A stretch of DNA of 63,782 nucleotides, filler included, from Dimorphilus gyrociliatus (lineage: Eukaryota; Animalia; Annelida), in NCBI GenBank assembly GCA_904063045.1. It is 3 parts of 3 records of this genome, joined end to end, with 100 filler letters (N's around TTAATTAATTAA, not from the genome) between each part and the next. Parts side by side here need not be neighbours in the genome. Positions count along the whole stretch, not along the records: positions 30,590 to 57,489 come from CAJFCJ010000153.1; 2 more parts are not named here. One strand, written 5' to 3'. The notes below the pieces were generated by a model. That model did no database searches, was not told where the DNA came from, and saw only the letters and a list, made by a program, of their open reading frames with translations. The position numbers and the translations under genes are program-made. Below are positions 1,081 to 63,782 of the stretch, in pieces. The first letter of the stretch is position 1. Every line of letters begins with the position of its first letter.

Positions 1081-2441
1081 ACAAAATCCCAGAACAAAGA
1101 GTGAAAAATGCTAGAGATGTTTCACTCTGACCATTTTGGAGGAGGAAATAAATTCTTTTTACAATGGTTTTGACAAGTGCTTACCACCATATTAACATCT
1201 AAAAAGAAGATAGGTCTAAAACAGCATTTATTACACCTTTTGGCTTGTTTGAATTTATTAAGATGCCTTTTGGACTAATTAATGCACCTCCTCACTTAAG
1301 ATATGTAATGAATTCATTTGTGCTAAAGGATGTAAAGCATTTGGCACTCAACTACCTTGATGCCATAATAATATTTACCTAGTCACTGTACAAACATTGA
1401 GAAGCATTGGAGACCATTCTTCAACACATTCAAAAGTAGAATTTTAAAATTAAGTAAAGGTGTGTTTTTGAAAAAACAAGTTCAATTTTTGGGACACATT
1501 ATATCAGAAAAGGGGATTGAAACAGATAAGGCCAAGATAGATAAATTATATAGTTTACTTCCATCAGTGTTTGCAAATTCACTACTAAGTTTAGTTGCTT
1601 TTTGTGGCTATTACAGAAAGTTCATACAAGATTTTACAAGAGTAGCCAAGCTGCTGTAAACCTTAATGAAACTACATGGGAAAAAGGATAAATTGCAATG
1701 GACTGAGGAAGCCAAACAATCATTCTTCAAATTATGATATACTATAGTTAACCCTCCTGTATTACAATTACTTGATTTCTCAAAAGATTTTCACTTGACA
1801 ACTGATGCATCAAATGTAGCAGTGGGAGGAACAACTTATATGAAAATGCAAAGAAAACAATGAAAACCTTTGCCTATGCATCTAAACAATTCAACAATAA
1901 TCAAATGAAATATGCAGCCTGTCAAAAGGAAGCTTTTGGTGTTTACTGTGTTGTAAAGAAATTTTTACATTACCTTCAAGACAAGCTATTCTTTTTATAT
2001 ACTGACCATCAGTCTGGTACAAACATTCAATCAAACAAAATTGAATGTCAGCAGAGCAAAATGGCTTTAATGGATTTAAAATTTACAATCAACTATGTGC
2101 CATGACAAAAAAAATAGAGCATATGCTTTAACAAGATTGGAAGAATATACACCACTACAGAAAGTGATATTTGAAGAGCTAATTCATGGAAATATTGAGG
2201 AGGAAATGTCTCCCTCTATTTCAGTTAAAATGGAACAGTATGAACATACACCAGATCTATCTTTTGTAGCTACCAGTGATAACAGTGAAGAGAAAATTGA
2301 TTTGTCTTCTGTTGACTTACAGTCAGAGCAAGAAAAAGATGTGAATTTGAAATCAATTAAAGAATATTTAACACTGGATGGTCAGCTACCTATTCCTTTT
2401 TTTGGAACTTTTACACCTTTCATAATGGAAATGTTTGTTCA
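1081..2441 (+). mobile_element. Degenerate Ty3/Gypsy pol remnant: protease scrap, reverse transcriptase, RNase H
   Basis: Frameshifted translation gives KTAFITPFGLFEFIKMPFGLINAP and NYLDAIII (YLDD decayed) at ~1200-1380, FLKKQVQFLGHIISEKGI (ORF 1462), TDASNVAVGG (~1800) and YASKQF..QKEAFGVY..FLHYL..LYTDHQ (ORF 1860). 1085-1125 is nearly identical to the protease sequence at 51452-51490. Confidence 0.9.
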
Positions 2442-3205
2442 TGTGCACTTAGATATAATGATATATCAATACTTAGACTTTAGATATAAGGGTACATTAG
2501 AAAGACTTCTATTTTATAAGAATTAGACTGGTGCTACTATAGAAATACTTATATTTTGTAGCAATTATAGTGGTGGAACTTTAGAAAGACTTTTATTTCG
2601 TAGTGTTAGCTTTTAGTACTTTAGAAAGAACTCTATTTCATAAGAAATAGACTCTTGACTGTAACAGATGGTGGCTACTTGGGAATTAACAAAGGAACAA
2701 AGAACATGGAAAAGATGCAGGTCAAACACCAGATGCTGATGAGGCAGGCCTGTTTACTGCGGCACATGTTTGACATGTGGCCCTAATCTTAGGATTATAT
2801 TTTATATGTGATATAACAGTTTTTCATATTTTTGTTACATGAGAATTATGAGACCATCAGATTTCAACTTTGTAATCCTTTGACCACTTGAACCCAAGCT
2901 TTGGAAATGTATAAAAGGAAATGCATTTCCCCAGCTTGTCAGTTCAGTTCTTTAACCATTAACTGGTTGTTTAAACTTACTTGTTTAGAACTAGAAACTC
3001 ATTTACTCAATACATATTCTTTGGACGAAAGACTGGTATTTTGTTGAATTATTTCTACCAAAATTATATTTGTTAAGACTATTTGTGGACAAACTTTAAA
3101 GGTTCTAATTGGACCAGTACTTTGGTAAATTGACAAATGATTGGAAAGGACGAATACTGTTCTGAAGAAGCAGAAATTCCTACAATTACAATACAACAAA
3201 GTACA
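2442..3205 (+). mobile_element. Solo LTR, 764 bp, inserted in the Gypsy pol
   Basis: Starts TGTGCAC and ends AAAGTACA (TG...CA). Exact 5-bp target duplication GTTCA at 2437-2441 and 3206-3210. TATA-like TATAAAAG at ~2909 and about four degenerate ~40-bp repeats at 2495-2655. Homologous copies occur elsewhere in the window. Confidence 0.9.
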
Positions 3206-3261
3206 GTTCACAAGGAAATGATCTAGATTATCCTTGAAAAAATAAACATTCTGGTTTTACT

Positions 3262-3366
3262 GAATACGACAGAAAATGGCCCCAACAGAAAATGGCCACA
3301 AATGAACAGAAAACGGCCTCAACTTGAACAGAAAACAGCCCCAACTGGAACAGAAAACGGCCACAG
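3262..3366. repeat. Subterminal tandem array of MULE (~5 units of ACAGAAAA(T/C)(G/A)GCC)
   Basis: GACAGAAAATGGCCCC, AACAGAAAATGGCCAC, AACAGAAAACGGCCTC, AACAGAAAACAGCCCC and AACAGAAAACGGCCAC are read directly from the sequence. Confidence 0.9.
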
Positions 3367-4830
3367 GATTCTTCAACCTAAATTAGATAAAACAAGAAAT
3401 GAATGAAATTTTGAAAGTGTGTTTATTTGAACAGTTGAATACATTATGAGACTACAACTTAAAAAAACATGCAATTTAACAACAATTGATTTATTTATTG
3501 AGCTACTAAATAAAGTTCAGAACACTTTAGTAGAACTTCTGATGAAGTAATCTCATGCTTTTCAAATCTTTCCCAAATTGAAAATATTTTATTTTGCAGG
3601 TTCTTATAAAGCTTTCTTTGGTATCTTAATATCTTCTTTTCTGATAACATTCTTTGATATGCTGCTATAAGGTCTGCTTCCCTTTTCAATTCATCTATCA
3701 CAGAATAAAATGAAACATTCACTCCAACATTTCCATTCAACCTATTGTGAAATCCCTCAACATCATTATTTGTTCTGATTGCACATTGATAGATAGACCA
3801 ACTTTTTGGTGACCAAACATCATTCAAAATCCAAGTTCTTTCAAAATAATCAATAAAATCAGCAAGTTTATCAATTGATTTAAGGTAATCCTTATTTTTA
3901 GTAAACTCTATTGGAATAATGTGAGATGGAAGGAATGGCAAAGCCATTAGCTGTCTCATTTCAAACCATTGTCCATTTTTTTGTTGAAGTCTGATGAATA
4001 ACCAAGCTCCTAAAAAAACAAAATTAAAAATGACTGCAGTTTGAGTTTTAGGTTGAATAATACCTGAATTTTTCTATAAACTGTTTGATTCCAATGGAAT
4101 AAGCATCCTGACAGATTTACATTTTCCCAATTATTTAATACAGCTTTCCAAACAGCTTTTTCAAAATCCATAACTATCTTTTTTGGTTCTTTATATTGTA
4201 GCAGTTGATTAATGCACTGAAAAACAGTGAAATGAATATTGAATGCATTTCAGAGAAAATTTCAAGTTGAACTACCTTGAATAACAGATTATATGCTTTT
4301 TTCTTTTTTGATGACATGAATGCATATAGAAGAGGAGCCTGTTTTAATTCACCTTCTTTCATTATTTTCAAGGACATCTTTCTTTAAGAAATCATCAGGA
4401 ATGAAGTAATTATTAATAAGAAAATTTCTTCCAATAGGTTCATTGGGGTGATTTTTTCTTCTATGGTAATTTATCATTTCTTTGCAATTTTCAACTTTTA
4501 CAATATTTCCCATATTTGCAAAAGGAAACAGAACAATTTCAGCTATTTGTTTTCCACTAACATTGGTGTCTGTCTTTCCTTTTTGTTTTGCTGTCACTTT
4601 CATTTCAATAATTTGTTCTAAATTTTTTTGGGGGGGTGAATATGATATTTAGACCCCAAAGAGAAGTTATTATTTCTTTGAATGACACTGGCAGGACATT
4701 TCATTTTCTTGCTTCTAACTCCACATCTCCAAATTATGGAAGTCTTGTCTTTCCTGTTGACAACAAATGAGTGACCATTAGATACAAGTAATTCTTTGCC
4801 TTTTTGACTTCCTGTAGGGAATATTCTGAA
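3262..4830 (-). mobile_element. Phantom-like MULE (FLYWCH plus Mutator transposase), internally deleted and truncated
   Basis: Minus strand encodes GSQKGKELLVSNGHSF..WRCGVRSKKMKCPASV (FLYWCH), KQAPLLYAFMSSKKKKAY and LMALPFLP..RTNNDVEGFHNRLN. The left end carries tandem subterminal repeats. Confidence 0.88.
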
Positions 4831-4837
4831 TTTACCA

Positions 4838-5632
4838 TTGCCATCATTTCACCATGGACCCAGGATGACATTACAAATAATTACAAAGACCTTATGGCAC
4901 CCAAAATTAAAGATTATGATTGAGAATTCAATAAAGGATTGCACTTTGTGTGAACAAATGAATGGTAGAAGTAGAGTATACCCTTTGGTAGAAACCTTCC
5001 ACCCTGTATCACCAATGGAGTTGGTGGCCATGGATATAATTGGACCCCTACCCATGGTTAAACCATACAGATTCATACTTGTGGTAGTAGATCATTTCAG
5101 TATATACACAGTTTTATATTCACTGAAATAGCAAACCAATAAAGAAATTACAAATCTTCTTTTCAACAGATTCTTTCCCATTTTTGGAATCCCAAAACAA
5201 ATGATGACAGATCAAGGAAGAAACTTGGTTGGTAAAGCTTTCAAAAAGTTTATAGAAGTATTAGGTATTGAGAAAATCCAAACAACAGCTTATAGAAGCC
5301 AGATCAATGAACCAGTTGAACAAGGAAATAGATGTGAGGAAGGAAATAATAAATTAGTGATGGAAGAAAATCAGCATAACTGGGTTGCAAACCTACCTTT
5401 CATTCAATAATTTTTGACCAATCACCTGTAGGAAGTACAGGACTATCACCACAAGAACTTCTGTTTGGTACCAGCACAAGAACACTGATTGATGTAACCA
5501 TGCATACTACATCTCCTAAAACAAACAAACTATTTGTATTCAATCACCAGCAACAATTAAGAGTGACAGCTGTCTGTAAATCTACCATGGCAAAAGTACA
5601 ATATAGAGAGAGAAAGAATAGAATAAGAACTT
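4838..5632 (+). mobile_element. Gypsy integrase remnant (zinc finger, DDE core, start of C-terminal tail), continuation of the 1081-2441 pol
   Basis: FHHG..CTLC, ELVAMDIIGPLP..FILVVVDHFS and MTDQGRNL..TTAYRSQIN..VEQ. The tail QLRVTAVCKSTMAKVQYRERKNR matches QLRATAFCKSIMVKEQYRESKNR at 53025-53095. Confidence 0.9.
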
Positions 5633-6280
5633 CAGCCAATGCACAAGCTCTGAAGCAAAAAAGAAAAGCAAAACTGAATATTCATCTGAAGATGCCAAAA
5701 TGAACTTTTTATCCATGTATTACAAACATATTTCAACAAATCTGTAAGCTTATTTTCTTTTGCCAGTTCATTTTAAATTTTCATGAATTCATTTTAAATC
5801 ATATTGTATGGCAAATATGGCAAAGCCATTATCATTTTCATGGATTCCCAAGCTCCCCCTTTTTTTTCCAAATTCGGTGCTGTAACCAAGATCCTGAAAC
5901 AAAACATTTGATGATTTAAATATTAAACATTCTTAGAAATCAATGAACCTGAATTTTTCTAAATATTGCTTGACACCAGTGAAATGAACATCCTGTCAAG
6001 ACAGTGTCAGGCCATTCATTTTGTAAAGTTTTCCAAACAGCCTTTTCATAATCTAACACCATTTTCCTGGGAGAGCAATTTATTGCCAAGTTTTTTACAG
6101 CCTTAAAGAGTTTATATTGATTCTTATTAATAAATATATTTATGGAATTGAATTCTTACCTGGAAAAGTAGTTTATAAGCTCTTTTCTTTTTAAAGAAGA
6201 GAAAAGAAAAAAGCAATGGAACTTGTTTAAGCTGTCCATTATTTTCAAAAATGCATGAATAGAGTACATTTGAACAAAAT

Positions 6281-10005: not shown

Positions 10006-10007
10006 GT

Positions 10008-20238: not shown

Positions 20239-21300
20239 TTAAAGATGAACCTTAAGAATGACTAATGATGTCCATGTTATTGTGTTTTCTTGTGTAGGTT
20301 CTTGATATTTCCTTTCTGGTAACATTATGTTATTTACATAGTTAGAGTCTTTGAGATCAGTTCTTAATAAATCAAATGCTTTATGTGGAACTAATACTCT
20401 TGTTCCTGGTCCACCAAATCCTTTTATGTATCTGTCTTGATATGGGAGGTCCATTATTGCATAGTTTGGACATGAAAAGTATCCTCCTAGTTTAACACAT
20501 TCTATGTCTCTTGTCACAACTTTATAAGGTGAGGTATGACCAAGGAGATGTTGCCCTTTTGTTGGATTAAATATGATAATTGAATCTAGTGTTCTATAGA
20601 ATCTATCTTTTATAGAGCAGTCTTCCATATACATTTATTCCAGATTTGTAGTTATTTTGTCTTGGCTAGGTTGCCAAAAGTCTTTACCAATTTGTAATAT
20701 TGTTGTGAATTTTTCAATAACTGTTGTTCTTGGCCATTTGTAATATGGTCCTTTGTTTTCCTTTCTGAATAAGTTTTTGTCCATTAAGAGTTTTCTTAGA
20801 ATAAAGCATTTTTCTACATTGCTTTTCAGTCTAGGTAAGTGTTTGTTTTTCAATTCTGTGCTTCTTTGCTCCAAAGAAGTAATATGTATAAAAGTTGATT
20901 CTTCTTTTCACCATACACTTATCTGCTTGAATAGCCAGTTTTTCAGCTTTTATTTCATAAATATTTGCCATTATTTTGGTCATTTCTTGAGTTTCAAAGG
21001 TACATACTAGTTCATCAGCCAAATCATATGACTGATGTACTTGTTATCCCTTACAAAATTGTACTGGTGGCAACATTCTTACAGTGATGTTTGCTCTGGT
21101 GAATGATGTGTCACCATATACCAAACTTAAGCAACATAAAGCTAGTAAGGTGATCCTCTGATAGGTAGTGTTCCACCATTTCTTTTTGTCTTTTCTAAAC
21201 AAACTGTGTTAATTCTTATTGGTTGTCTATTTGCTAATCTAAGTCTGCTAGCATGATAAAATTTTCTTTTATTTGCCAATATTTCCAATTCATACAAACA
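20239..21300 (-). mobile_element. Decayed second copy of Gypsy integrase tail plus class III env
   Basis: YELEILANKRKFYHASRLRLANR, then ITLLALCCLSLVYG (signal) ..ANITV..FC..YDLADELVC..NFYTYYFFGAKK..YKWP..KITTNL..SCPNYAIMDLPYQD..GFGGPGTRVLVP. This is collinear with 53250-55230. Confidence 0.88.
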
Positions 21301-22817
21301 TTTTGTAGTATCAGTAGCAGTTACAAGATATTTATTCTGTTCATTCCTTGTCCAATGTGCTCATTTTTTATGTGTATCCAAAGTTTGAACAATGCAAAGT
21401 AACATTTTAACACAATTAAAAGTTCTAAAAATGGTTCCACCTTTAATTGGTTTCATTCATCCTGAGTAATAAGGTCAGATAAATTTAGATGGTCAGCTTC
21501 TTTCATAAGATGTAACAATTTTTGTAACATTCAATTCAACCATTGAATGTGAGAAATTGGAAAAACAAAGTCAACAATAGTTGAGTCTGACGTTTTGGTA
21601 CTCTTTAGCTGGCGGCTAAATTAATGTTCTTAAGTGGTTAAAGTAAGGCTAATGTAGTTCTATAATTAATGCTAAATTCATTGGATTTATTTGTAAGAAT
21701 TTTATATGCTCACATGCATATGTGCATTGCAGCATATATTTATAATAGAATTGTGCATACCTAGCCCTCAATGCTAATGTTAAGTATTCATATTAAATAG
21801 TATTGAGTTAAGTCTACAGTTTTCTAAAAGAGCATCTATATCAAACTGAAGTGTACACTTTCTGAGTACCATTTTTTATAATTTTAAATTTGGAGGAATC
21901 AAAGAATTTAATACTAGATGGTTTTATTTCAAATGAGCTTTCTTCAACATCATTAACTTCAAAATTAGGATCACTACTAACACTTAAATTTCAATATCAA
22001 TTGAACAATTATCAATATCCATCTCCTGATCAACATATAAATCATAATGAAATGGTATTTGATAATCATTTGGATTATTGCTAACATTGACATTTTCTGC
22101 AGCTTAATAAGAATGTTATTGACCACATATTTTGTACAACACTATTTTTAAATGCCATTCTGACATTCTTAAATTACCTCATTTAAGTAAATTATAAATA
22201 TTTGAAAAATAATACTACTGAAACTAACCATTAGCACACTTCTTGTGGTAATTATGATGACAAAGATTGCATTTAAAACCAGTGTTATTTCTTTTGATAA
22301 AATTTTTACAAATATTACATGACACCATTCTTCTTTCATGAAATAACGGGATGATTTTCAAAATTATCCAATTTTCTTAAAATAATAAATTTTTTTTATT
22401 TAATTTCAAGTTAGGATGAATCTTAAACTATTCATACATTAATTAATTCATTATTTATGTTAAAAAACCTAATATTAGTCACAAAAATATATAAAAACAA
22501 AAATTAGATCTTTTTAAATATTTGGAGAGGAAGCAGAATTATGGATGACAAAAGATTATCTTTAAAAAAAAAACTGGTAAAAAAGAATTCTTTTAAAAAA
22601 AGAAAGAATTTGATTTATGAGTTTTAGCAATCATTTTTTACAATCTCTGTCTCAATACAATAAATAATCTTTAAAATAAAGATTTATAACTATATTTATA
22701 ATAAAAGTTCTTTAAACAAAAGCCAGAAATATTAGTTATATACAGTTTTTAAACACCACTGGGTGTTTTCAATCAGTACAGTAGGCGTTTTCAACAGGTT
22801 AGTGGGCGTTTTCAAAA

Positions 22818-30589: not shown

Positions 30590-30837
30590 AAATATTACAA
30601 AATAAGCATCTGGTAGCCAAGTTAATTAGTCAGGTAATTGTAGTTAATTAATAGGTAAAAGAAAAGTAACAACACAACACTCCCAAAAGAATGTTTTATT
30701 ATAAATAGATTTTTAATATTTGAATGCTTTGTACCTGAAAATTTTGACAAAGTATAAATAGGACAGAAAAATTACAAACTATAAATCATTTTGGTTTGTA
30801 AGTTTGATGATTGAAAGAAAGAAGGAAAAAGAATAAT

Positions 30838-39899: not shown

Positions 39900-42800
39900 A
39901 AACTTCTATATGAAGTAAAATAATTTATTTTCTCTTCTACAATTTGAAAAGCACAGAGCTACAGCTGAAGATATTTTATGTTCTCTGCAAAAAAAGTAAT
40001 GGATAATCAGTTTTTTTTTGCTTTTGCCATTTGTCCTTAGAACAACAAGAAAAAGGAAAATAATCCTACACTTTGATTTTTTTCTTTCTTTGATTTGTTT
40101 TATAAAATGATTTAACATCTTTAAAAGTGTATATCAATGGATTTAGAACAGAATTTAATGGTAGAACAAGAACAGTAATTGCAATATAGATGTCATTTTT
40201 GAATTGTAAATTGAAAAATACTGAGTATATTCCTTGAAAGGAAAATTGAAAAGACTATTATGATTTCTAATGTGTTATGTTAATTGATTGAAAAATCTAA
40301 CCTAAAAATGAAATTGGAAACCAACACAAAAAATTAGTTATTACAATTATGAAAGCATTTGATTTGAATTTTCTTTGTTGGTATTTGAATTGATTTTCAT
40401 TAACTATTCCCCTCCTTTCCAAAGTTAATTTCCATATTCTCATATAAAGAACTAATATTATCAGACAAATCATTTGTAGAAGGATTCCAAAGATTATAAA
40501 TGAAAATGTCCATCCTTCAACTCTTTCACTCCTTATTTGTAATGTGAAACATATTGGACTCTTTGAGTAGTAAGACTGTATGGAAAATTCATGGAATGCA
40601 TTATTAATCAATTATTAATTCAATTCGGGTTAGAAGAGCTTTGACAAACACACTGACTTTATAGATTACTATGGGAATTGCTGATATGAGTCCTGATATC
40701 AGAAATATGCACATTGTTATAACAATTGATAAGGATGGCCTGAATATCTTCCTAAATGGCCAAGCAGTAATGGTATATCTCTCAATTGTTACCATTAAAA
40801 GGCTTAGAGCGGAAATCATTATGGAACAACTGCAAAACCAGCCAATGAATTTACAGCCAACACTTGTTCTCCATTGGATATCATGATCTGAATATCTGCC
40901 TCTATAATAAGTATCAAAAGTGCCAATGACCAGTAGGAAAATTGATGTACATAAATCAGCCAAAGATAGGCCAAAATGGAAAAAGTTTTTAATAATTTTT
41001 TTATTCAGTTTCCTTAAAATAATTGATAGGAAATTCTCAAAAAATGCTAATAAAGCAAATATCCAAAGGACAACTCTAATAGTTGGAGATTTAATTAAAT
41101 CAGTGCAAGAATTAAAAATTGATTTCTTTGGTAGGCATTTCTCCATCATCTTTGAGAATTCCCATGCAATGCAACAGAATACAAAATGTCTACTGTATAA
41201 TTCTCTTAAAGAGTAGAGAGGTTTTAATAGGTTGTATGAATATTTTAAAGGCAGGTAAGTATTTTCCAGCATTAGGTATTGTAGGCTTATTAATGATATG
41301 AAAGCGTCTCTATCAACACTGTATATATAGCAATTAGCAATTATAAGACTCAATAAGTTTTTTAGCCCTAGTAGCAGATTTTTAGAAATATAGGATATGG
41401 TAGTGGAAGAGAAGTCAATTGATCTTAGGGACAATGAATATTTGAATGTAATTGATTCTTGTATCTTTAATGCAGTTTTTCTAATTATTAAATTTTGCAG
41501 TTTTCTCAATGGATGATCATAGAAGATTGCAGTGAAATTCAAATATTGACAATTTTCAATTTCTAAATGAACAACGTTTGGTGAAATCTTTGAAATTGGA
41601 AAATTTAAATAAGTAACATTGTGTAATGCCAATAAAATTATGGTGAAGGATTGTTTAAAAATGTGAAATTTTTTCGAATTCAAATTATTTCCAATAATAT
41701 TTGAAATATTGATTTTTTTAAATCCAGAATAGATTATATTTGTCAAATTTTCTACAAGTACTTTATCGTTCTCATAAAAAATGCAATGGATTGAGTAAAA
41801 CTGCAAACATTGACACTTTTCATGGAAACAAGAAGGTTGGAAATTGTTGAATGTGCAATAGAGTTCATCATTACCCTTCAGACAATCAACTCTACCATTG
41901 CAAACATTGTTGATTGGTATAAATGTACTTTGATTTTTACACTTAAAATAACCTTTTGGTTGAAAATTATCTATTTAAAGAAATAAAAAAAAGCAACTAT
42001 CATTCATTGTTATAAATGTTTAAAATTTATTGGATTGGATGACATAGAAAATGTCTATTTGAAAACACGGCTTGGAAAATTTATAAGAAGTATTTAAAAG
42101 GGTTAAAAGGGTCTTGGGGGACAAGAACAACTGACATTTTCCATTATGTCACACCATTGACATACTGCAATTGAATTCATCATCAAAATGTGTACAGTGA
42201 ATAACACCATCACAGACATTCTTTATTGATATACAATATCTACTCTTCTTACAGAGGTAACTTCCACTTGGGCAAGATGCTCTATTACAATTCTTCAATG
42301 CATTATAGGGAAAGTGGACTTTTGTCAAAACATTTCCCATAGAATCATAATTCAATTGGCAAATTTTATCAACTTGGAATTTTGAACATTTTCTAACATT
42401 GCTTCTATAAAGTGAATTACATGTGCTAGATTCCTCATCTTCTTTATTCAAACAATTCACACTCATATCGCAAACTGTATCCATTCTGATGCATTTTTCT
42501 TTGCATTGAAATAAACTATGTTCAGTACAATCTAAAAAACAAAAAAAAAAAAACATTATCAAAGATTTTTTTGTTATTGCTCTCTAATTTTTTTTTATTA
42601 TTATCAATCAACTTAATGTATTTTCAATTTTATCTTTACAACTTTCATCACTTTCATCAAAACAGTTTTTTTCAAAATCGCAAAATTGTGTTTTTTGAAT
42701 GCATTGTCCATTGTTGCACCTTATTTTGTTTAGTAAAATAATTAGTATAATTGATAAGTTTGTTAAATAACTAAAAAAATAACTGTAACACTTCCTATCC

Positions 42801-48800: not shown

Positions 48801-51800
48801 AAATTCTTAATTTTCCTTAATCTATTACAGTAGTTAAACAGAAAAAAGCCTCTCAAGCTTTTCTGCTATTCATTATTAAGGGAAACAAGAATTGTATGAT
48901 TATGAAAAAAAAGTTTTACTACAGTTTTCTTCATCATTTCCATTAGAGCATTCTTGTAAATGATCACATACATATTTGTAGCTTATGTTATAGCCATTTC
49001 CACATTGGTATTCATCAGCTTGTGGACAATTTTCTTCATCTTCACCAGAGAAACAATCCAGATATCCATCACACTGGTAAATTCTATTAATACAAATTTG
49101 GTCTATTGAACAATAGAATAAATGTTGAGAACACATATCTTTATTGATATAGAGTCTTAAAAATTGATTTATTAATATTCTATTCTTTCTATTCATTCCA
49201 TCAACTATTGTTCAATATGAAAAAACAATTCCAATGTCAAACTTTTTCATGGACTTATCTAAAGTTCTTACCTGCTGGACTAATACATGGTAGAGTTGTT
49301 ATTTGTTTTAATTCACATGTAGTAGGTTCAATATTGTATGTTTTATGCATGGAATGAAGCAAGGCAGATGGTTTTTCAATTATTTTATATAGAAAACACT
49401 TGGACATTTTGGTAATTGTTGCTTGTCTAATATTGTTTTTGGTGAATTTTCTACAAATGTCTTTCAGGCTAGATTTTCAATTTAAATATCTAAATGATGT
49501 TTTTATCAGTTATATCATACTTATTTAATCACCTATAAAATATTGGTTCTGATGATGTGAAATCATAAGGTTTCTTATCTAAATGAACTATAATTGACCT
49601 ATTTCTGCTATTTTTTATAGTTTTTAGCTCTAAAACATATAAAAAATAAAAAGAAAATGTAATATGTTTAAAATTGACTACATTTGATATTCACTTCCAG
49701 GTAAATTGAAATAATAGCTATTAGATCCCACAGTTTCAATTGACATAAGCAGTTGAAGATGATAAAAAAAATCAAATATTTCAAAAGACAAAAAACTCAA
49801 AGTACTGTTTTTCTTTTTGCAAATATTTTGCACTTTATCAATAGACACTCTCTTTTTATATTGTATCAATAGAAAACAATGATTTTTAAATTGTATTGCA
49901 TCTTTGTTGTTGCATACTGCAGGATCAAATTTAAAAATTTAAATTGTAAATTTTAAACACATACAAAAAACACCTTTGCCATTATTTGAACATTTTATAT
50001 GAATTTATAGTGTATGAAGATTTTTTTTTTTATATTTTAAAAATGAGTTTACTATTGCACTATTTACATTTACACCACATGAAGAGTTATACTCATTTTT
50101 GAATTGAGTACATTTCATAGTTAAATAATAATTAAGAAAAATTGTTGATGTATAAGAATAACTAAATATTTCACCAAATTTAAAACCAAATGGAAATGCC
50201 ACTGGGGCAGTTACAGACTCTAACCCTTCAACCCCAGCAACTCCAACAATTACAATTCAGCCAGCAGGAATGTCAGAAAGGCAACAAAGACTAATTGAAG
50301 ACTATGATAGATTGGTGAGTGAAATGAAAAGAAATAGAATCACAATTCCAACAGATCATGGAGATGGAACACATCACCCAGCACAGAACCCAAATGTTGA
50401 TATCACAACAGTAATTCAAGCATTAAGGGCTGCTTGGGACCGCCCTCAAAGAACTATTCTCAAGTTGTATGATGGAAGCAAGGAGTGTTCAAAATTCAAA
50501 GAAGACTTTAATCAGGCATGTTATGCTTATGGTTGGATAGGTGAAGATGTTGTGAAAGCAAATCTTTTAGATTATTTAACTGGTCCTGCAAAGGATTTGG
50601 TGTTGGCTCTGGATGGAGAGCCTACTGTGGAGGAAATATGGAAAGCCCTCCATGACGAATTTGATCTGGAGCCTTTGGAGTATCAAGAGAAATTGCTTAA
50701 CTTAAAGCAAATGAATGGCGAAAGTGTGGTTCAGTTTGTTAATAGAGCAAAGAAATTGATAAAGAGGTTTTCTCCACCTAGACCAATGGAACCACAATTG
50801 CTTGCAACTATGAAAGAAATAAAACTGATGGAAGTTTTACAAAGAGGATTACAACAGGATATTCTACATTTAGTGTACACCTTACATCCTAAATGTCAAA
50901 CATTGGCAGAACTATATGAGGCTGCTAAGTAAGTAGAAACTTCATTAAAACTAACTCAAAGAAAACCGATCACAATGGTGTCAAAATTGGAAACTCAACA
51001 AAGAAAAGAGACCAAAAAGACCCAGGTAATCAGAAAAGATGCTTCTACAGAAACCCCAAATTTTTGGAATAGAAAGCATGTACCTGACAACAAAAATGCT
51101 ACTAAAGAAAAGTTTTCAAGCCAAAAAGTCCAAAAGTATGCACCAACTACAACAAACAGGTATTATAAGAAAAATCAACCAGCAAAGACAATTCTGAAAG
51201 AGGAACCTAAGCTACAAAAATTAGAAACATTAGACAATGAAAGCATGTCAGAAAATGATGAAGTTCAAGATATTCTCTGTTTTTCAGATAGTGACTTGTT
51301 ACAAAGCAAACAATCTGAGCAAAATGCTTCAACATTTATTGGACAATTTGAAACTAATAATGGTTTTAAGTTTGATGCCTTGATAGACTCTGGTACTGAC
51401 AGATCTTTTGATTCAAAAAAGGTATTAAGACAAGTTCAAGGAAAAGCATCCTTCCCAGAACAAACTGTGAAAAATGCTAGAGATGCTTCAGGTAATAGCA
51501 TAGAGATATGTGGAGAAATCATTCTCAGACTTTATTTTAATGGAAAGATTATTAAACAACGCTTTCTGATCAACAAAATCATTACACAACAATGTATTAT
51601 TGGGTGTGACTTTCTACAACAAAATGGAGCTACCCTTGACTTTGGCAAGAGACAGATTATACTCCAGCCAGGTACAGAAAAGAATTACCCTGTTGGAACA
51701 CAACACTTATCTTTCAAAGGATTTTACCCAGTTCCTCTTATTATGAAAAGAATGAGAGTCAAATACATACCCTTCAGACAACAATTGAACAAGAAAATCT

Positions 51801-54800
51801 GGAGATGAAGGACAAAGTTACCCAAATTCTGGCGAAATATAAAGAAACTATTGCAGAAGACAGATTTGATATTGGCAATCCAGAGGTACCACCCTTGGAA
51901 ATAACTCTTGAACCAGGTTCAACACCATATAGACAAAGGCTATATAGAATGCCTCCTCAAAAACAAGAAGAATGTAAGCAGCAGATAGCTGAATCTTGGT
52001 GAACTGTTGCTCCATATTTTAGAAGGTTGGAAAGTTGCATAAGATGTAAAAATTTTTGTACGTGTTGGATTGATTCCAAAATCCAAAAATAGGCAAAGGT
52101 CAGCCTTAGTACTGTTCTAATATACTGCAAACTTTTAATAATAATTGTAAGATGTTTTAGCATAAAAAAGTGATAGGTATAAACTAAATAAACTTAATTA
52201 TTCAAAATAGTATTGTGCATACAAATTCATATAAAAATTGTTTGCCATTATTAAAATTTAATATATTCATTTTTAATAAATTATATCCAAATTTTTTTTA
52301 ACTAGATGAAACTAAACTTTGCCTCTTGGAAGATACTTCTAAAAATAGACAACGTAGAAAACTCCATTTGAATTTTAATTTTTTCAATAATTTTACATAT
52401 TTTATATGCATAAGGAAAATTTGTATAGAAATTGTTATTAATAATAAACATAATAATTTGTATAACATATTTAGATGTAGGATTTAAAATATGATCTGTA
52501 TTCCGTGAAGTAATTGTGTAAAGCAAAAAATACCAATAAAAGCTTAACTGGTATTAAATAATTTCAATTTCATATTGAATTCCATCAGAATTTGAATTGT
52601 GTTAAAGAAACTATTATCCCAGAAGAGGAAACTGTGATCTCTAACCAACAACCCGTGAGCAAAGTAAGTTATACCTTGTGAACAGCTTGTAACACTCTTT
52701 AAAAATACCATTATTTCTTCTTCATTAAATTCTTCGTAGATAATTGATTTTTGATAAGTATACCTGTCTGGATAATTGCTACTATGCAATTCTAGTAATT
52801 CTTCAGAGTTATTATCCAAATACACCATGCCAAAATGATTATTTATAATTTTGCATGTCACATTTGAAATACCACTCTCAATATTTGGTTGTATTCAAAA
52901 TTTACTGGAAGTAGTGTTTTTCTTTTGTAACCCTTTGAAACACGTTCTAAAAACTTCTTCGGATTTGACAGATAAGGAAGTGAGTAGTCAGACGAAATGT
53001 TTTGAAAATATTACATTTGTCATGGTACAGTTAAGAGCTACAGCCTTCTGTAAATCCATCATGGTAAAAGAACAATATAGGGAAAGCAAGAATAGAAATC
53101 TCAATCTTCCAAAATATTTTGAGGTTGATGATGAAGTATTCTTAAGAAATGATGGTGCAAGAATTGCAATAACAAAAATCCCTTCTTTAAAATGGTTAGG
53201 CCCATACCGAATAACAAAAGTCAATCATCAAAAGTGGATATATGAAATACAAATGGATGATAATACATGCAAGTTTGTACATGGTAGCAGATTAAGACTA
53301 GCCAATGAATCTAATAAGTTGGAAACAGGGAAAGAAACAACAACAATCTTTCTCCTTGTGGAGAAGGAAATAACACACCTCCAATATCTTTCTCAGGTAG
53401 AAGGAAGAAATGACTTCCAATTCCGTTTGAAGAATCACAAAGGCAGAGAAGTCATTGCCTTGTGTGACACAGGAGCATTGAGATCCTTTATTACTGAAAA
53501 AGAAATCAAGTTAATGGATGTCACAATTATGGATAAAGAAACAATTGGCTTACCAATTATAACTTCAGCTGATGGGAAAGCTTTAAAGCAAAAAGGAAGC
53601 ATAAAGCTGAATATCCAATTTGCTGGAGAAAGTATGGAACAAGAATTTATCGTTATGGAAAATCTAGACATAGCAATAATACTTGGTTGTGATTTCCTAC
53701 AAACTGTGGGAGCAAACCTCAATTTTTAAGCTAAACAGTGTTCTCTCAAATTTGATAGAAGGAAAGGGAACCTGGCTGAAAGAATAAGGCAACCTCAACT
53801 AAACAAAGTCACTATAGCTATGATGGGACAGCATGACTCTTCATCAGAAATCTCAGATAGTGATGATTCAGAGATGGAAGTTACTAATTCTGATACTGAT
53901 TATGACACAAGCAATACTTTTGAAACAGACAGTAATTACAGTGTCAATGAACCCTCAAGCTCATCTGAAAGTGATGACACAGAAACAAATAATGAACTGG
54001 ATCAAAACACAGATTCAGAGGCAAACATTATCTCTGATAGAGAAGAGGAAATACCTTGTTCAGACAATGAGTCAATAATTACTGAAAGTGAAATTATTGA
54101 TATAACCCATTCTGATAATGAGTCAACAATTATTGAAGGTGAAATTATTGACATAACCCATTCAGATAATGAGTCCATCATAGTGGTAGATTCATCCCAA
54201 GATGAGAAAGAAAATACAGGTGACACAGACAATGAGTCAGTCATATTTTTAGATGAGACTAAAATCATCTCTGAACAATTAGATTCCCAACAAGAAGTGG
54301 GACCACAATATATAGAGTTAGAGGATGGAATAACTATCAGAGTGGAACAACAACACAAAATTTTCAACCATTCAACTATAGCCAACACAGGAAGAGCTAA
54401 CATGAAACAGATGTTGTGGCTTCCACTAGTGATGACTGTAATGGTGATCTGTGGCTGCATCCACTCAATAACAGTTCTGAAACCATCCTACCAAGGTGCA
54501 CATGTTACAACTGCAAACATTACCTTAACATTTAAACCACTGTTATACTTTTGTTCTAACCAACTACCAAGCCAGGCATTTGATCTAGCAGATGAGCCAA
54601 CTTGTAATATAGAATCACAAGAAACCAAGACAATTACAGCTGATATCTATGAATTGAACTTGGAAGAAATTGAAACAAGAGCAGTAAAATGTCAAGTGTA
54701 TCTAAGAACTAATTTTTACACTTACTATTTCTTTGGAGCAAAGAAGAGGAGAATTGTTAACTCAGTTATTAAAGTAACTCATGATCAATGCAGACAGATG

Positions 54801-57400
54801 GTAAAAGACAAACAATCTTTTCAAGGAAAACCTTTAATGGTGAAAAGAAACACTTGGATCCACCAAGATCAGCTTCCTGCTGCCTACACATGGCCAACAA
54901 CTACCAAGGTGCTGGAATACACCACAATTATCCAGTTTGGCAAAGCATATTGGCAACCTCCTAATATGAAAATTACAACTAATCTGGACTACCTGGAAGA
55001 TTGTTTACCAGGGCAGTCCTATTGTGAGACAGAAGAGGCAATTATTGTCTTTAGAAACCTCAAGAATAATTACACACTTCGACAACAATCACCATGGATA
55101 AAAATTAGCAACAGAATTAGTTGTATGAAATTTGCTGGTCACTATTCTTGCCCAGGGTATTCTATTCTGGACATCCCTTATCAAGACAAATTCATTGATG
55201 GAATTGGTGGCCCTGGAACAAAAGTGCTAGTACCACTGGAGGAACAGAGTTTAATACAGGAAACAGGCAAGGAACACCTATACAATTTGCTACAATATCA
55301 AAAGATTGGAAAAAATAAAGAAAAACGACTATTAAACTATCCCAATAAAGTGAAAGAACAAATTATACTATACAAGAGAAACAGCCCCTTACCAAGTCTT
55401 AACCAATGGTATAGAGAAACAAACACAATGTATAAACTAATGAGAAATAAAGGCACACTCAAGGAAGTTGTGATATATCATCTACAACAACCCATTAGTC
55501 CATCTTACTGGGAGCTGGATAACTATTATATCCAAGAAATGCTGCAAGCAGTCAATTGGACAAGGGCAACAAGACAATCTGTTACGATTTCAAAATATGT
55601 ATACAGTGAGAAAAGAATCAAACAGAAGGTATTACCAACATTGGGCATATGGTATAAAGGACCACCAGCCAGAGAATTTAAGATTACCCATGAAGGAATT
55701 TATTTTACTCTACACATGCGAATGGCTAAAAAGCAGATGAAGAAGGAAGCAAAACTGAAACATAATATAAGTAAAAACCCATACCACAAATTCCCATTGG
55801 AAATGAGAGAAGTTGCCCGAACATCTACCTTACTACATGGCATTGATTCAAATTTTAAGAATTTAAAAAAGTTTACCCAACAGCTGTCAAGTCTTCTCTG
55901 CAATCAATTTGTTCAAAGAAGCAGGATGATGGCATTACTAGCAAATTTGGATCCTCAATTGACCACAGTGTTAACAAATGAGTTGGGAATGCACAGTAGT
56001 CAGATGGGAGAATTAGCTATAATTAAACAATGTTCACCAATAGCCTCAACAGAAGTAGTTTGTGACTTAAGCATGATAAAAAAGAATAACAAATGTTCTC
56101 AATTTTTACTTGTCACCATGAACAACCTGCTTTTCCAAGTAGAACCAGTTACTCATGTTTTACAGCAAGTCAATCCTGAAGAGATTATCTATAATGAGTG
56201 TAAGTCTAACAAGTTATTTAAATTATCATCTAGATATTGAAAGGAAAGAAAATAACGTATAACATTTATGTGGAGAAAGAATTAGTATATCTCTCAAATG
56301 ATATTTTGCTAAGAAAACAAAATATAATACAAATTGGAAAAATGTTTTTAAAGGTGATATGTTATGATAAAAGAATGAAACAGATGATTTGATATTTTGT
56401 TAGTGAAAAAACTATTATTCTAATTTTACTTTTTGCAATTTCTCATGTTTTCAATATATAATACCCAAAAATATTGTCCATTAATTAGAGGACATGTTCA
56501 AGTTGAAAGGCAAAAGAATGATTGGCTATATATCTCTAATAAGAGATTTACAAAAAATGAAGCTAAGGTAATGCTATTCATATAGGCCTAAACGAAATAA
56601 TAATAATTTGAATTTCAAAACGAAAACAGAAAATGTGCAAAAAATTCAATTGTATTTCTGATAATAATCATTTTGTGAAAAAGCCTCAAGAATTTTGTTT
56701 AGTGTATTTCTCATTGCATTGCAACTCTGAATCAAAAATGTTGGATGATTGCCAAATTTTTAATATATTAGATGAGAATTTACTATTTGGTGATTATTTG
56801 ATGCCGTTTATTCAATGCGATAATTCAACGTTCTTCTGTAAGATATCTTCTTTTATACTGTCTGAAAAAGGGATTTGTTTGAAAACTCAATGTAGGACTT
56901 GGATCACTATCTGTCATTTCTGCAATTATGTTGGATAAATAGAGAGATTTATACATAAAAGATGGTTCCAACTCCACCATTTAGATTTTCAGTTGAAGAG
57001 CAAGGGTTAGTCACTTTCCTTTGCCAAATTAATTTAATTAGCATATTGCCTAGTTCATCAGCGATTAAGATGTTACATTCATTATGGAGATAGATAGTTA
57101 AGAGCCCTCAATATAATCTTCTCCACTGGATAAGAGTAACTACTTGTAACTTTTCCTCTTGATAGCCATATCTGTAGATTTTCTTTACACAACTCAGTTT
57201 GCAAATACATATTGACAACAAGGAATGTCATCAACAGATGACATCTGTAAAAATCAAATTTTTACCTTTTTGACCTCGTTGACTCTACATTCAAGTTTGT
57301 TTTCAACCTGATTTAGTAACTTGAATGTATAGTTAACAAGAATTGATTGAAGAGTAAGATCTACCTCATAAACTTGTCCATACTATCCTACACCTATTGA
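39900..57400 (-). CDS. Large multi-exon GRL101-like mosaic receptor (CUB/SRCR/C-lectin-like modules, many LDLa, LRR, 7TM); integrity and 5' extent uncertain
   Basis: LDLa exons at 48340-49200 and 41830-43230, C-lectin-like 43897-44121, SRCR-like 44417-44734, CUB-like SSNYPDRY at 52544-52861, LRR plus TM1-4 at 40604-41806 (TIERY) and TM5-6 at 40297-40611. It may be more than one gene or partly pseudogenic. Confidence 0.7.
47620..47980 (+). mobile_element. MULE transposase C-terminal scrap
   Basis: SVFGMNICTNNDVEGWHRRLNEK at 47905-47975. Confidence 0.7.
50200..52000 (+). mobile_element. Gypsy gag, aspartic protease 1 and start of RT (no LTR flanks)
   Basis: Capsid-like LYDG..F..CYAYGW..LLDYLTGPA..LKQMNGESVVQFVNR. 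Same frame after one TAA (50930) to ALIDSGT..IIGCDFL. Then a frameshift to LEITLEPGSTPYRQRLYRMP (RT N-terminus). No zinc knuckle seen. Confidence 0.9.
52990..53729 (+). mobile_element. Integrase C-terminal tail (GPY/F) fused in frame to a second retropepsin
   Basis: KWLGPYRITKV..YEI..VHGSRLR, then ALCDTGALRSFI..SADG..G.I.L.I..F.V....IILGCDFL. Confidence 0.88.
53820..56240 (+). CDS. Acidic SIM-like linker plus class III fusion-type envelope glycoprotein (signal at 54402), C-terminally truncated, no TM anchor
   Basis: 806-aa open frame: Ser/Asp/Glu-rich first ~190 aa, signal MLWLPLVMTVMVICGCIHS, C..Y.YFFG.K..V....C..M..W..AYTWP, and LCNQ..LLANLDP..MGELAIIKQC (gB-like). Confidence 0.78.
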   Translation: MMGQHDSSSEISDSDDSEMEVTNSDTDYDTSNTFETDSNYSVNEPSSSSESDDTETNNELDQNTDSEANIISDREEEIPCSDNESIITESEIIDITHSDNESTIIEGEIIDITHSDNESIIVVDSSQDEKENTGDTDNESVIFLDETKIISEQLDSQQEVGPQYIELEDGITIRVEQQHKIFNHSTIANTGRANMKQMLWLPLVMTVMVICGCIHSITVLKPSYQGAHVTTANITLTFKPLLYFCSNQLPSQAFDLADEPTCNIESQETKTITADIYELNLEEIETRAVKCQVYLRTNFYTYYFFGAKKRRIVNSVIKVTHDQCRQMVKDKQSFQGKPLMVKRNTWIHQDQLPAAYTWPTTTKVLEYTTIIQFGKAYWQPPNMKITTNLDYLEDCLPGQSYCETEEAIIVFRNLKNNYTLRQQSPWIKISNRISCMKFAGHYSCPGYSILDIPYQDKFIDGIGGPGTKVLVPLEEQSLIQETGKEHLYNLLQYQKIGKNKEKRLLNYPNKVKEQIILYKRNSPLPSLNQWYRETNTMYKLMRNKGTLKEVVIYHLQQPISPSYWELDNYYIQEMLQAVNWTRATRQSVTISKYVYSEKRIKQKVLPTLGIWYKGPPAREFKITHEGIYFTLHMRMAKKQMKKEAKLKHNISKNPYHKFPLEMREVARTSTLLHGIDSNFKNLKKFTQQLSSLLCNQFVQRSRMMALLANLDPQLTTVLTNELGMHSSQMGELAIIKQCSPIASTEVVCDLSMIKKNNKCSQFLLVTMNNLLFQVEPVTHVLQQVNPEEIIYNECKSNKLFKLSSRY
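54060..54260 (+). repeat. Coding 51-bp (17-aa) tandem repeat SDNES-x-EIIDITH
   Basis: Units start at 54060, 54111 and 54162, with a fourth degenerate TDNES at ~54225. Confidence 0.92.
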
Positions 57401-57489
57401 TTTATTTACTCTTGTTTGGCTGAATTTTAAAGGAAGAGGAATAGAAGGAAAGAGATTCACAAACTAAAAAGTAAGCTTTACAACATTTA

Positions 57490-57589
57490 NNNNNNNNNNN
57501 NNNNNNNNNNNNNNNNNNNNNNNNNNNNNNNNNTTAATTAATTAANNNNNNNNNNNNNNNNNNNNNNNNNNNNNNNNNNNNNNNNNNNN
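57490..57589. other. Artificial contig linker (second copy)
   Basis: Identical N44-TTAATTAATTAA-N44 cassette. Confidence 0.97.
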
Positions 57590-60379: not shown

Positions 60380-61570
60380 TCATTTCTTAGAAATCCATGA
60401 ATACAATATAGTTACTTGAATGGGTCATTTGCAAGTTTGAATGTTCCATCAAGAAACCAAATATTTGTTGATTTCAAAAGGTTAAGTTGGTTGTCTGTTG
60501 CAAAAATTACCACTCTTGTTTGTTTTTTAAAAATATCAACTTTCAAGAAATTTTCTGGTAAAAACATTTGTTTAATAATAAATCTCAAGCCATTAGGTTC
60601 CTCAGGTCTATTTTTTCTTTTGTGATAGTTAACAACTTCAATGCAAGATTTTATTGATGGTAAAGACTCATTTCCATTATATTCAATAAGAGTTTCCTCT
60701 GCAATGCTTTTTCCATTTTTATGAGTATTCCCTTTTCCTTTCTCCCTAACATTCTTTTTCAACAGAAGCTTATTTTCTAAATCTTTCACTGGGCTATGAA
60801 AATGCTCAGCTTTAGATAAAGTGTAGGAGAAATTCACTTCAGTGATTCCAGCTTTACATTTTTCTTTCTTGGTTTTAAATTTTAAATGGCTCAATTTCAT
60901 TACATTTTTCTGTTACAAATACTTGATCATTTTCAGTTGAAATAATCAGGTACTGTTTCTGTTCACAGTTCATCTTCTTTATTTACCATTTCATCCAATA
61001 TTCTGATCTCTTGAAAGTCAAATCCAAAGGAAAAATTTATGTCAAATTCATTTGGAGAATGAAATTGTCTTATTAATAGTCATGCTATTCCTTTCCTCAT
61101 GACCTGAATTTTGTGATAGTGGCATCATTATTTTCATTGGACTACTTTGGGGCCAACAGAAAATGTCCATTTTTTAGAAACTTTGGGATTGAAGTTTAGG
61201 TTGAAATTGGGTTTTCAAAAATAAACGAACTGTTGTTTTGTTGTTAGGTGGGTCTAAACTAAAGAGTTAGGTAAAGCAAAGTGAAGAGGGAAAGGGCCAG
61301 GGCTCAGTTAGGGTTAGGGTTAAACTCCAAATTCATTCACGTTTTCTGTCGCATCCGACAAATTACTTTCACTCACTTCATGCTGCTGAGTTGTCCCAAA
61401 ACAGCATTTGTTCACTTTTATAATAACTTCCTTACTCTTTATTTCTTTGCATTGAATAAAATACTTTCCTTCCATGCACTTAATATGGAAAAGATGTTTA
61501 CATAGTAAGCATGTCATTTTCTTATTCTTTCTATGAATATTTTTTTTACAACTGTTACATACTGCCATTT
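60380..61570 (-). mobile_element. Fourth MULE remnant with N-terminal PHD-like finger, interrupted by a MITE
   Basis: MAVCNSCKK..CLLCKHLFHIKC..NKC at 61400-61568. VVIFATDNQL..WFLDGTFKLANDPF at 60412-60520. Confidence 0.85.
61149..61356. mobile_element. 208-bp diverged relative of the TTAGGG MITE
   Basis: Ends GGGGCCAACAGAAAATGTCC and CGTTTTCTGTCGCATCC (right end identical to 12176-12190). Internal GTTAGGGTTAGGGTT. Flanks GACTACTTT and GAC(AAAT)TACTTT look like a degenerate TSD. Confidence 0.82.
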
Positions 61571-62448
61571 TGAATCCTGATGTAATGCCACTTTTAAAAA
61601 AAGGTTAATTAAATGAATACTTTTTAAAATTATTTATTGAAACCATTAATAATATATTTTACAAGTAATAATTCCCTTTTTTACCCATCACTTGAGTTTT
61701 TCATTAGGGAATCCTAACAACCCTAAATTTTAAGTTGAAAGGGTTACTACAACTTCAATAATCTAGCTCTGGACAATCAGCTGGATGTGTAAAAGAGATT
61801 AAACTTCAACTTGGCAATTTTGAAGATGGTCACTAACCGCTAACTTGCAGATGTTCTGACATGATCATGGATTGCTCAAACAGGGAAAATTTGGAAATTG
61901 TTGGTTTGGATGCTAATAACAAGCACTCACCTTAAGCTGTCAGGAAATTGAACTAGGAATGCAGAACAATTTGATAAGCTGATAAATTTGCAGTCAGGCA
62001 ATTTGAAAAATAAGTTTATTCAAAAGATTGTCAATAGTGCATTTTGCATTCTCCAGAATTTACAGCAGATTGTTAAGAATTATCATCCTTGACATTGTTA
62101 TTTTGTAGTTGCCTATAATTACTTATGATTATTATTATAATAGTAGGCAATCAATGAAGGAAATTAAAGACTTTCAGTAAAAGAATTAGCATAGCTTGAG
62201 GTTGAGATTAGGGTTAGGGTCAAGGTTAAAGTTTACCAGTCAACAAAAAAACAACACACAAAATTCCTAAACTGAATAATGTGTTTTTGAAGAAAATTAT
62301 TCAGAATTTATTACATGTAATAAATATAAGTATAAGGTTTATAAATATAAGTTTATTAGATAATTAAATTACCTGAACTACTCAACATTTTTTCAAAAAT
62401 TTCTTAAGGTTACTGCTTCCTTCTTCATTTAAATAACAGTACATAGCA

Positions 62449-63409
62449 TCAATCTCCATGCAATGAATGTTTTGATTGCTCAAGTCCTTTACAAATATCT
62501 AAAAATCCAATTTTTGTATCAATATTCCCATTTAATTTAATTTCCTGAATTGCTGAACAATTTTCCAACAATTTCCCAAGATTAGTGATTTGTTCTTCAT
62601 TTAAATTACAGAATGAAACATGAATCTTTTGCAATGAATGTTTTGATTGCTCAAGTCCTATACAAATATCCAAAAATCCATTTTTCATCTTAACATTCCC
62701 ATTTAATTTAATTTTCTGAATTGCTGAACATTTTCCAACAATTTTCTCAGACTTCTGCATAGTTCCTCATTTAAATTACAGCGTCTAACATGAATCTTTT
62801 GCAATGAATGTTTTGATTGCTCAAGTCCTTTACAAATATCCAAAAATCCATTTTTCATCTCTATTTTTAAGTAATGAAATTTCCTGAATTGCTGAACAAT
62901 TTTCCATGATTAGCGATTTGTTCTTCATTTAAATTACAGTAGGAAACATTAATCTTTTGCAGTGAATATTTTGATTGCTCAAGTATTTTACAAATATCCA
63001 AAAAGCCACTTTTCATCATTTTATTCCCTCCTAATTCAATTTCCTGAATTACTGAACATTTTCCCAACAATTTCCCAAGATTAGTGCTTTGTTCTTCATT
63101 TAAATTACAGTATCTAACATCAATCTTTTGCAATGAATGTTTTGATTGCTCAAGTTTACAAATATCCAAAAATGCATTTTTCATACTTTGATTCCATTCA
63201 ATTGAGTAAACATCACTGGTTGGGACTTGACATTCCTGTTGACACTTTGGACAAGTCAGTTTATTGTTACTAATATCTGACTGTTGTAAACATTGTAAAC
63301 AGAATGTACGATGACAAGGAAGTATTCTAGGATCCTTATCCACCACCAGATCCAAACAAATAGCACATATAACACTTTCCTCTTTTACAATATATGTAGC
63401 AGCAGCCAT
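62449..63409 (-). pseudogene. TRIM-type RING finger fused directly to ~5 RI-type LRR double repeats; frameshifted after repeat 2
   Basis: CAICLD..DPRILPCHRTFCLQCL..CPKC followed within ~25 aa by SLQKIDVRYCNLNEEQ repeats. The DNA unit is ~171 bp (62461, 62632, 62802, 62960, 63131). Confidence 0.8.
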
Positions 63410-63782
63410 TCGTTGTGGTTATTAAAATAGAAAAAATATTATAACCATGGTTATAGTTAACATGTAATTAGTTTGATATTTATGGATTAACTGAAATGTT
63501 ATTAAAAAATTTGAACATTGAGCTGTGTTATTATTAAAAATTAACCAAAGCCAGAAATATTCTTCCAGAATGAGGTGGCTAGCCAAGGAATACAATTCCA
63601 ACCTTGATGAAGAGGCAAACTTTGCTACCAGAATCAAAGGAAATAAGAAAAAATAAAAGACCTGTCGAGGAAGGATCAACTAGAGAAGATAATAATAGTT
63701 GTGGAGGACCTTAAGAGAAAAGTGCAAATAGGAGAGGTTAATGAGGTATACAAGCACAGTGCCATGCTCCAGGTGTAGATGT

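Follow-up and report, generated by a model that had tools for sequence, protein, structure and literature searches.

A defective copy of a repeated Ty3/Gypsy element in Dimorphilus gyrociliatus with a predicted gB-type class III fusogen as its last gene product

The element copy and its surroundings

We analysed a stretch of 63,782 nt from the Dimorphilus gyrociliatus assembly GCA_904063045.1 (hereafter the window, to which all coordinates refer), whose three parts are separated at 30490-30589 and 57490-57589 by identical joins of 44 N, 12 letters and 44 N that are not biology. Positions 50188 to 56218 hold one copy of a retroelement family with the gene order gag, protease (PR), reverse transcriptase (RT), RNase H (RH), integrase (IN), second protease (PR2), acidic linker and env. 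The window also contains an older copy of this family and a copy of a second, diverged family. The parts of these copies are as follows:

50188..50932 (+): gag with an Arc/PNMA-like capsid, 5' end cut (Pfam PNMA, E 1.2e-4, below the cut-off)
50933..51808 (+): junction of gag with pol, and the first aspartic protease, which has a DSG motif (Pfam RVP, weak, E 0.0069)
51640..51994 (+): N-terminal start of reverse transcriptase, assigned by position only; element sequence ends at 51994
51995..53022 (no strand): low-copy AT-rich DNA of about 1 kb where RT core, RNase H and integrase core would be expected
53023..53320 (+): C-terminal module of integrase, SH3-like, with a GPY motif (Pfam Integrase_p58_C, weak, E 0.037)
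53385..53750 (+): second aspartic protease (motifs DTG and ILGCDFL); a stop at 53727-53729 interrupts its frame
53751..54401 (+): linker, acidic and rich in Ser/Thr, that shares the frame of env (224 codons, 25% D+E)
54402..56218 (+): env, a predicted class III fusogen ectodomain that breaks off ahead of the membrane anchor
1087..5688 (+): an older copy of this family, in decay, that retains RT, RNase H and integrase
20338..21330 (-): decayed member of another, diverged family, in which an integrase C-terminal module precedes a related env

An in-frame stop at 50930-50932 divides gag from the next stretch, which continues in the same frame; gag and the first protease together hold 1 stop in 519 codons, and the first-protease stretch has a frame break near 51745. 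The Pfam search of 51640-51994 gave no match, and we assigned this stretch to the start of RT because contigs from public sequencing runs that fit there continue into RT. The low-copy DNA at 51995-53022 has a GC content of 0.263, against 0.355-0.363 in the element, and is covered at the depth of the flanks, while the integrase module that follows it continues the integrase core in contigs of two runs (X2 and X5). Within the linker, at 54059-54175, a unit of 51 nt is repeated in tandem (2.3 copies). Within env we distinguished a putative signal peptide (residues 2-28), two candidate fusion loops (around residues 109-111 and 162-165), a basic insert (about 280-460) and a candidate central helix (about 480-545). 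The older copy is interrupted by other transposon DNA (about 2437-4848).

Other features of the window include a Mariner-type transposase at 8371-9063 (+) and FLYWCH/MULE-like pieces at 3495-4848, 7311-7805, 35011-36868 and 60412-60912 (-), one of which splits the older Gypsy copy. Two tandem long ORFs that resemble single exons, at 24375-27701 and 27824-30541 (-), are about 67% alike in DNA and NLR-like in appearance, the first with a NACHT domain. Leucine-rich repeat arrays with a period of about 57 aa lie at 9972-11477 (+) and 62353-63418 (-), the latter joined to a RING finger. A long cysteine-rich protein of CxxC repeats with short introns and a weak VSP match is found at 16747-19949 (-), a rhodopsin-family GPCR at 30811-31866 (+), and an LDLa-LRR-7TM receptor, similar to receptors of the GRL101 type, at 40604-42583 (-).

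Family membership and state of the copy

We compared positions 49000-57480 with four public runs (X1, X2, X5 and X6) through Logan contigs, which collapse repeats. Depth was high exactly on 50188-51994 and 53023-56218 in the four runs, with the element beginning at 50188, and stood at flank level elsewhere. The dominant contigs of X1 had a depth of about 15,000-23,000, compared with 99-116 in flank contigs, a ratio that suggests one to two hundred copies, depth not being the same as copy number. C>T changes (180) together with G>A changes (279) made up nearly all those in X6, as they would in a base-converted library, and we left this run out of letter comparisons.

An X2 contig of 5,579 nt matched 51544-51994 (98.4% identity) and 53025-55827 (97.4%, gap-free), and its middle corresponded to window positions 1128-2436 and 4849-5559, which carry RT, RNase H and integrase (91-93%). 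The same join from pol to the env side was found in an X5 contig of 3,128 nt. These contigs give adjacency within the family, not within a single molecule. Pieces of the older copy matched the Pfam models RVT_1, RT_RNaseH, Integrase_H2C2 and rve, in that order, and the pol order PR-RT-RH-IN follows from this copy together with the protease and integrase C terminus joined to it by the X2 and X5 contigs. When searched against the PDB, a 59-aa piece of RT matched Ty3 RT twice (E 5.5e-10 and 4.7e-9; the third match was at 0.062). The assignment of the env-bearing copy to Ty3/Gypsy, made in a sequence-only reading of this DNA, holds because single contigs join a Ty3-like RT-RNaseH-integrase to env. 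That reading had relied on nucleotide matches between the copy and the region at 1.1-5.6 kb, which do exist but are short: 1087-1124 matches 51453-51490 (38 nt, 92%) and 5553-5623 matches 53027-53097 (71 nt, 83%). A BEL/Pao host element was rejected, as the RT matches Ty3, the gag PNMA and the proteases RVP-type models.

At the level of the family, gag, a gypsy pol and a gB-type env occur in one multi-copy element, and the present copy is a defective member. Both of its ends are cut and it has no LTR, about 2.3 kb of the pol core is missing, and it carries two in-frame stops and one frame break. The copy at 50188-56218 is dead, truncated and internally deleted, and it cannot work because it is without RT core, integrase core, anchor and LTR. 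A published 12-nt primer-binding site was not found in the window, as expected of a copy that has no ends.

The envelope reading frame and its predicted fold

Positions 54402-56240 (+) translate, as had been read from the sequence, to 612 aa (P0001) with a signal-like start, inside a stop-to-stop frame that spans 53730-56240. None of 500 sequences generated under a dinucleotide model had a frame as long (maximum 179), which rules out a chance ORF. Residues 2-28 form the sole hydrophobic 19-residue stretch of the ORF; it has four N-glycosylation sequons, no R-X-K/R-R furin site and no membrane anchor. We located each of the motifs singled out earlier: YTYYFFGAK at residue 106, AYTWPT at 161, LCNQ at 499, LANLDP at 513 and MGELAIIKQC at 535. 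Truncation does account for the missing anchor, as had been proposed: after 56218 other copies continue with different letters, and residues 607-612 of the ORF derive from flanking DNA. Two relatives, P0003 (70% identical) and P0004, extend about 200 aa further to a hydrophobic anchor, and a C-terminal anchor is likewise present in P0011, so that its absence here is a defect of the copy and not of the family. P0011 is a complete distant relative of 631 aa with signal and anchor stretches; it and P0013-P0015 sit on contigs of 7.4-9.6 kb that may be either retroelements or RNA viruses. The basic insert of about 180 aa (residues about 280-460, window 55240-55780) is poorly modelled and is common only to P0004 among the aligned relatives, being absent from P0005, P0006, P0007 and P0011. 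A 64-nt fragment at 22820-22883 (+) is 86% identical to the signal-peptide region of env (54432-54495).

Searched alone, P0001 had no match in Pfam or among PDB sequences. The word-indexed protein search retained 0 of 2,557 candidates (0 of 3,517 longer ones) for P0001 and 0 of 3,153 for alignment A1, and searches of metagenome and viral contigs with env gave no match. HMMER on 1.84 billion representatives returned 10 relatives (E<=0.001, 24-70% identical), all unnamed; the related env families include relatives that are 70%, 42% and 36% identical. When we ran Pfam on 11 aligned env sequences, two matched Rhabdo_glycop_FD (best E 2.1e-5) and one matched Glycoprotein_B weakly (E 0.022). The 11-sequence profile matched four chains named "Glycoprotein" in the PDB (E 8.6e-5 to 1.8e-4), including rabies G (8a1e), in an alignment where YFFG falls opposite FVG and YTW opposite YHW, and where the cysteines stay in register. 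With a profile of the C-terminal half (7 sequences), EBV gB made up the top 5 of 7 matches (E 0.14-0.19), falling on the central-helix motif that had been pointed out before.

Folding without an alignment gave a pLDDT of 31.8, and folding with one gave a mean pLDDT of 49.5 and a pTM of 0.36, with confidence only for about residues 75-220 (the fusion domain) and a pLDDT below 50 for the central helix. The modelled fusion domain has an elongated beta fold, two aromatic loops and conserved disulfides, as in class III fusogens. Foldseek searches of the model returned 87 PDB matches at E<=0.001, of which the best 35 were all herpes gB (best E 7.5e-7), with low TM-scores against it (0.12-0.22). Against BFVD, the best 50 of 176 matches (E<=0.001) comprised gB and glycoproteins of rhabdo-, chu-, nyami-, xinmo- and orthomyxo-like viruses, as well as uncharacterised entomopox and rhabdo-like proteins and four unnamed rows. 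We then compared the model with 48,161 chains using VIA-align, and all 10 chains at Z>=5 were class III fusogens: HSV gB came first (Z 9.7, rmsd 10.3, 193 aligned), followed by HCMV gB (Z 9.2 and 8.6, the latter with rmsd 3.8 over 135 aligned) and Chandipura G (8.2), the remainder being MHV68 and HSV gB, Bourbon, Thogoto and rabies. The class III, gB-like envelope claimed from motifs and loop spacing is borne out by the profile matches, by VIA-align and by the Foldseek comparison that had been put forward as a check, and env is predicted to fold like herpesvirus gB. On the donor virus the signals diverge, the sequence of the fusion domain leading to rabies-type G and the structural matches to gB. 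With herpesvirus gB, rhabdovirus G, thogotovirus GP and baculovirus GP64 the predicted protein has in common the fusion-domain fold, the bipartite loops and a candidate gB-like central-helix motif; it differs in being encoded by a retrotransposon and shows 4-16% identity to them in structural alignments. Unlike for herpesvirus gB, a gH/gL-like partner was not seen in the element.

A second protease, probable Dingle membership and the making of Env

Env had been placed directly downstream of integrase, which turned out not to be the case: about 1.1 kb separates the integrase C-terminal module from the env Met, and this interval holds a second retropepsin and the 224-codon acidic linker, both missed earlier. 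Four Pfam models matched the second protease above the curated cut-off, with gag-asp_proteas best (E 6.5e-7) and RVP (E 2.1e-6) and RVP_2 (E 3.6e-6) among them. The two proteases are 30% identical (E 7e-11), and their match spans the stop at 53727-53729. From integrase to the env break there is 1 stop in 1,065 codons, lying within the protease match, compared with 82 and 109 in the other frames; none of 500 controls had an open frame as long as the linker. The breaks of this copy are absent from high-depth contigs of X1, X2 and X5 (three of the four runs), among the 40 of 679 differences listed. X6 does not show this absence, and with 40 of 679 differences listed other copies may have stops elsewhere. 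Among 62 candidate stretches retrieved with the integrase tail and protease as a query, one locus (L001) matched, with the integrase tail only and neither protease nor env, and a PDB search with the same stretch gave no match.

In the second family at 20338-21330 (-), about 100 nt at most separate the integrase tail from env, whose protein is 40-43% identical to P0001 and 46-47% identical to P0002. We found no second protease or linker there, and the protease-linker insert is family-specific in that this sister family is without it.

An annelid Gypsy element with a gB-like env is already in print: Martin-Duran et al. (PMC7854359) named it Dingle, describe it as the most abundant class of transposable element of Dimorphilus gyrociliatus, and liken its env to CMV and HSV-1 gB. 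In the same text, Gypsy-like DNA accounts for 1.67% of the assembly, and Mariner and MULE are given as the DNA transposons. Chary and Hayashi (PMC13524379) list 1512 env-bearing Ty3/gypsy elements across animals, 221 of them with a gB-type env, for which they argue an ancient origin. The novelty of the envelope and the "independent" lineage that the sequence-only reading had proposed are not supported in view of these two sources. The Dimorphilus element of the second source, Annelida_Polychaeta_Dgyr_errantivirus_1 (record CAJFCJ010000063.1:0-11589), is 8,045 nt long between the primer site and the 3' LTR and is tabulated as GAG-POL with a chromodomain (PMC13524379). We found no Pfam match to a chromodomain in 53022-54401 at E up to 1; the authors' HHpred might read the SH3-like integrase tail differently.

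For the present family, the summed internal length comes to about 8,050 nt if the protease-linker is counted and to 6,968 nt if it is left out; the agreement of the former with the published length is partly luck and serves only as a consistency check because the tail of env comes from a 70%-identical relative and the 5' end from a contig end. The copy has in common with Dingle a Ty3/gypsy pol, an env downstream of integrase, a gB-like env, a genome with Mariner and MULE and an internal length of about 8.05 kb. It differs from the published descriptions in the second protease and the acidic linker, of which we found no mention in the passages searched, and in the chromodomain, which is tabulated there and was not found here (PMC7854359, PMC13524379). 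Judged from anatomy, length and transposon classes rather than by alignment, the copy likely belongs to the Dingle family. With the wider group of gB-type errantiviruses it has in common a gypsy pol, a class III env and two fusion loops as in non-insect members; in that group the furin site is not always kept, and the table labels elements POL-ENV or GAG-POL-ENV (PMC13524379). What distinguishes the present family is the second retropepsin and linker before env and the basic insert of some 180 aa. BEL/Pao elements with a gB- or chuvirus-like glycoprotein, cited for mosquitoes in PMC13524379, likewise carry a class III glycoprotein at their 3' end, but the pol found here is Ty3/gypsy and not BEL/Pao.

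We weighed other identities for the element and its envelope against this one. It is rather improbable that the copy is a gB-type errantivirus belonging to some family besides Dingle-1, whether in this or in a different lophotrochozoan host, as the missing chromodomain, the comparison with Dingle-1 by length and description instead of alignment, and the existence of several related env families (70%, 42% and 36% identical, besides the one of 40-43% in the window) would allow. In that case it would be a new representative of an already known kind. The length of 8,050 against 8,045 nt with the protease-linker (6,968 without) speaks against this reading, as do transposon classes and a high abundance that agree with the Dingle genome, and the Dimorphilus element is the sole gB-type one among 74 annelid rows in PMC13524379. 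A rhabdo-, chu- or nyami-like RNA-virus glycoprotein, endogenised beside a piece of Gypsy by chance, would fit the rabies-type G found as the best sequence-level PDB match of the fusion domain and the chu-, nyami- and rhabdo-like G among the best 50 of 176 BFVD matches. However, env has the same depth as gag and pol, in each of two runs a single contig links pol with the env side, and the second family repeats the integrase-env order; such a stray viral insert, largely ruled out by the pol-env contigs of X2 and X5, has a very small probability. Least credible of all is a class I envelope of the baculovirus or paramyxovirus F type, for which the ESM Atlas lists Baculo_F clusters first, at a score of 0.81 that is a lead only (threshold 0.9) and lies in a range attained by shuffled proteins in one case out of three, recognition being low. 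There is no R-X-K/R-R furin site, the leading sequence-profile and fold matches are class III, and we rejected a class I F protein on the class III fusion hairpins modelled at residues 75-220. Insect errantiviruses do carry a class I F-type envelope, and the BEL/Pao elements Tas and Anakin carry gB- or chuvirus-like glycoproteins. A domesticated host fusogen was also discarded, the copy being without an anchor and one among many. The reading that we retain, and hold to be highly probable, is a repeated Ty3/Gypsy element, likely of the Dingle family, whose last gene encodes a predicted gB-type class III fusogen.

How Env is made is a separate matter. The continuous frame (1 stop in 1,065 codons) suggests one pol-protease-env polyprotein. 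We tentatively propose, at somewhat under even chances, that a single Gag-PR-RT-RH-IN-PR2-linker-Env polyprotein of about 2,650 codons is made, from which PR2 would release a membrane-tethered class III Env, an arrangement that appears unreported. Drosophila gypsy makes its env from a spliced mRNA, and the same element might do so from Met 54402, leaving the second protease and linker as a tail of pol or a relic. This is the less probable of the two: it draws on a Met that coincides in position with the signal peptide and is preceded by an A at -3, on candidate AG acceptors at 54381 and 54390, a context that fits a separate env mRNA, on the label GAG-POL with env apart for the published Dimorphilus element (PMC13524379), and on the diverged family at 20.3-21.3 kb, in which env directly follows integrase and the protease is absent. 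Against it, linker and env are not divided by a stop and the open frame is far longer than chance would give, although a spliced mRNA and a polyprotein could coexist.

Under the polyprotein reading, frame continuity indicates that env would likely form the end of a long pol-env, possibly gag-pol-env, product. The sequence further allows, at slightly better than even odds, that the internal signal of env would be cut by signal peptidase while the second protease would free integrase from a membrane-tethered acidic linker. In working copies, by analogy with known class III proteins and on the strength of the model, env would probably act as an anchored trimer whose two aromatic loops enter the target membrane, and would let particles pass from cell to cell, likely from soma to germ line by comparison with Drosophila errantiviruses. 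The entry mechanism of gB-type errantiviruses is called unknown in PMC13524379.

The main texts of PMC7854359 and PMC13524379 use the word "protease" once each, neither time about a second domain, and in the literature text searched, to which the published Dingle domain figure does not belong, we found no description of a second protease or linker in gB-type elements. The second protease before env may be the only unreported part of this element. That a lophotrochozoan Gypsy element carries a herpes-gB-like envelope is true, but opens nothing new, having been published as early as 2020 and being known by now from many animal phyla. What is left as a lead is the pair of second protease and acidic linker sharing the frame of env. 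Should both prove real and active in natural copies, they would illustrate a way for an enveloped retrotransposon to derive capsid, enzymes and fusogen from a single frame, and would bear on how gB-type errantiviruses assemble and enter cells. A dedicated second retropepsin, which the sister family lacks, would then represent a layout with two proteases that is so far undescribed among enveloped retrotransposons.
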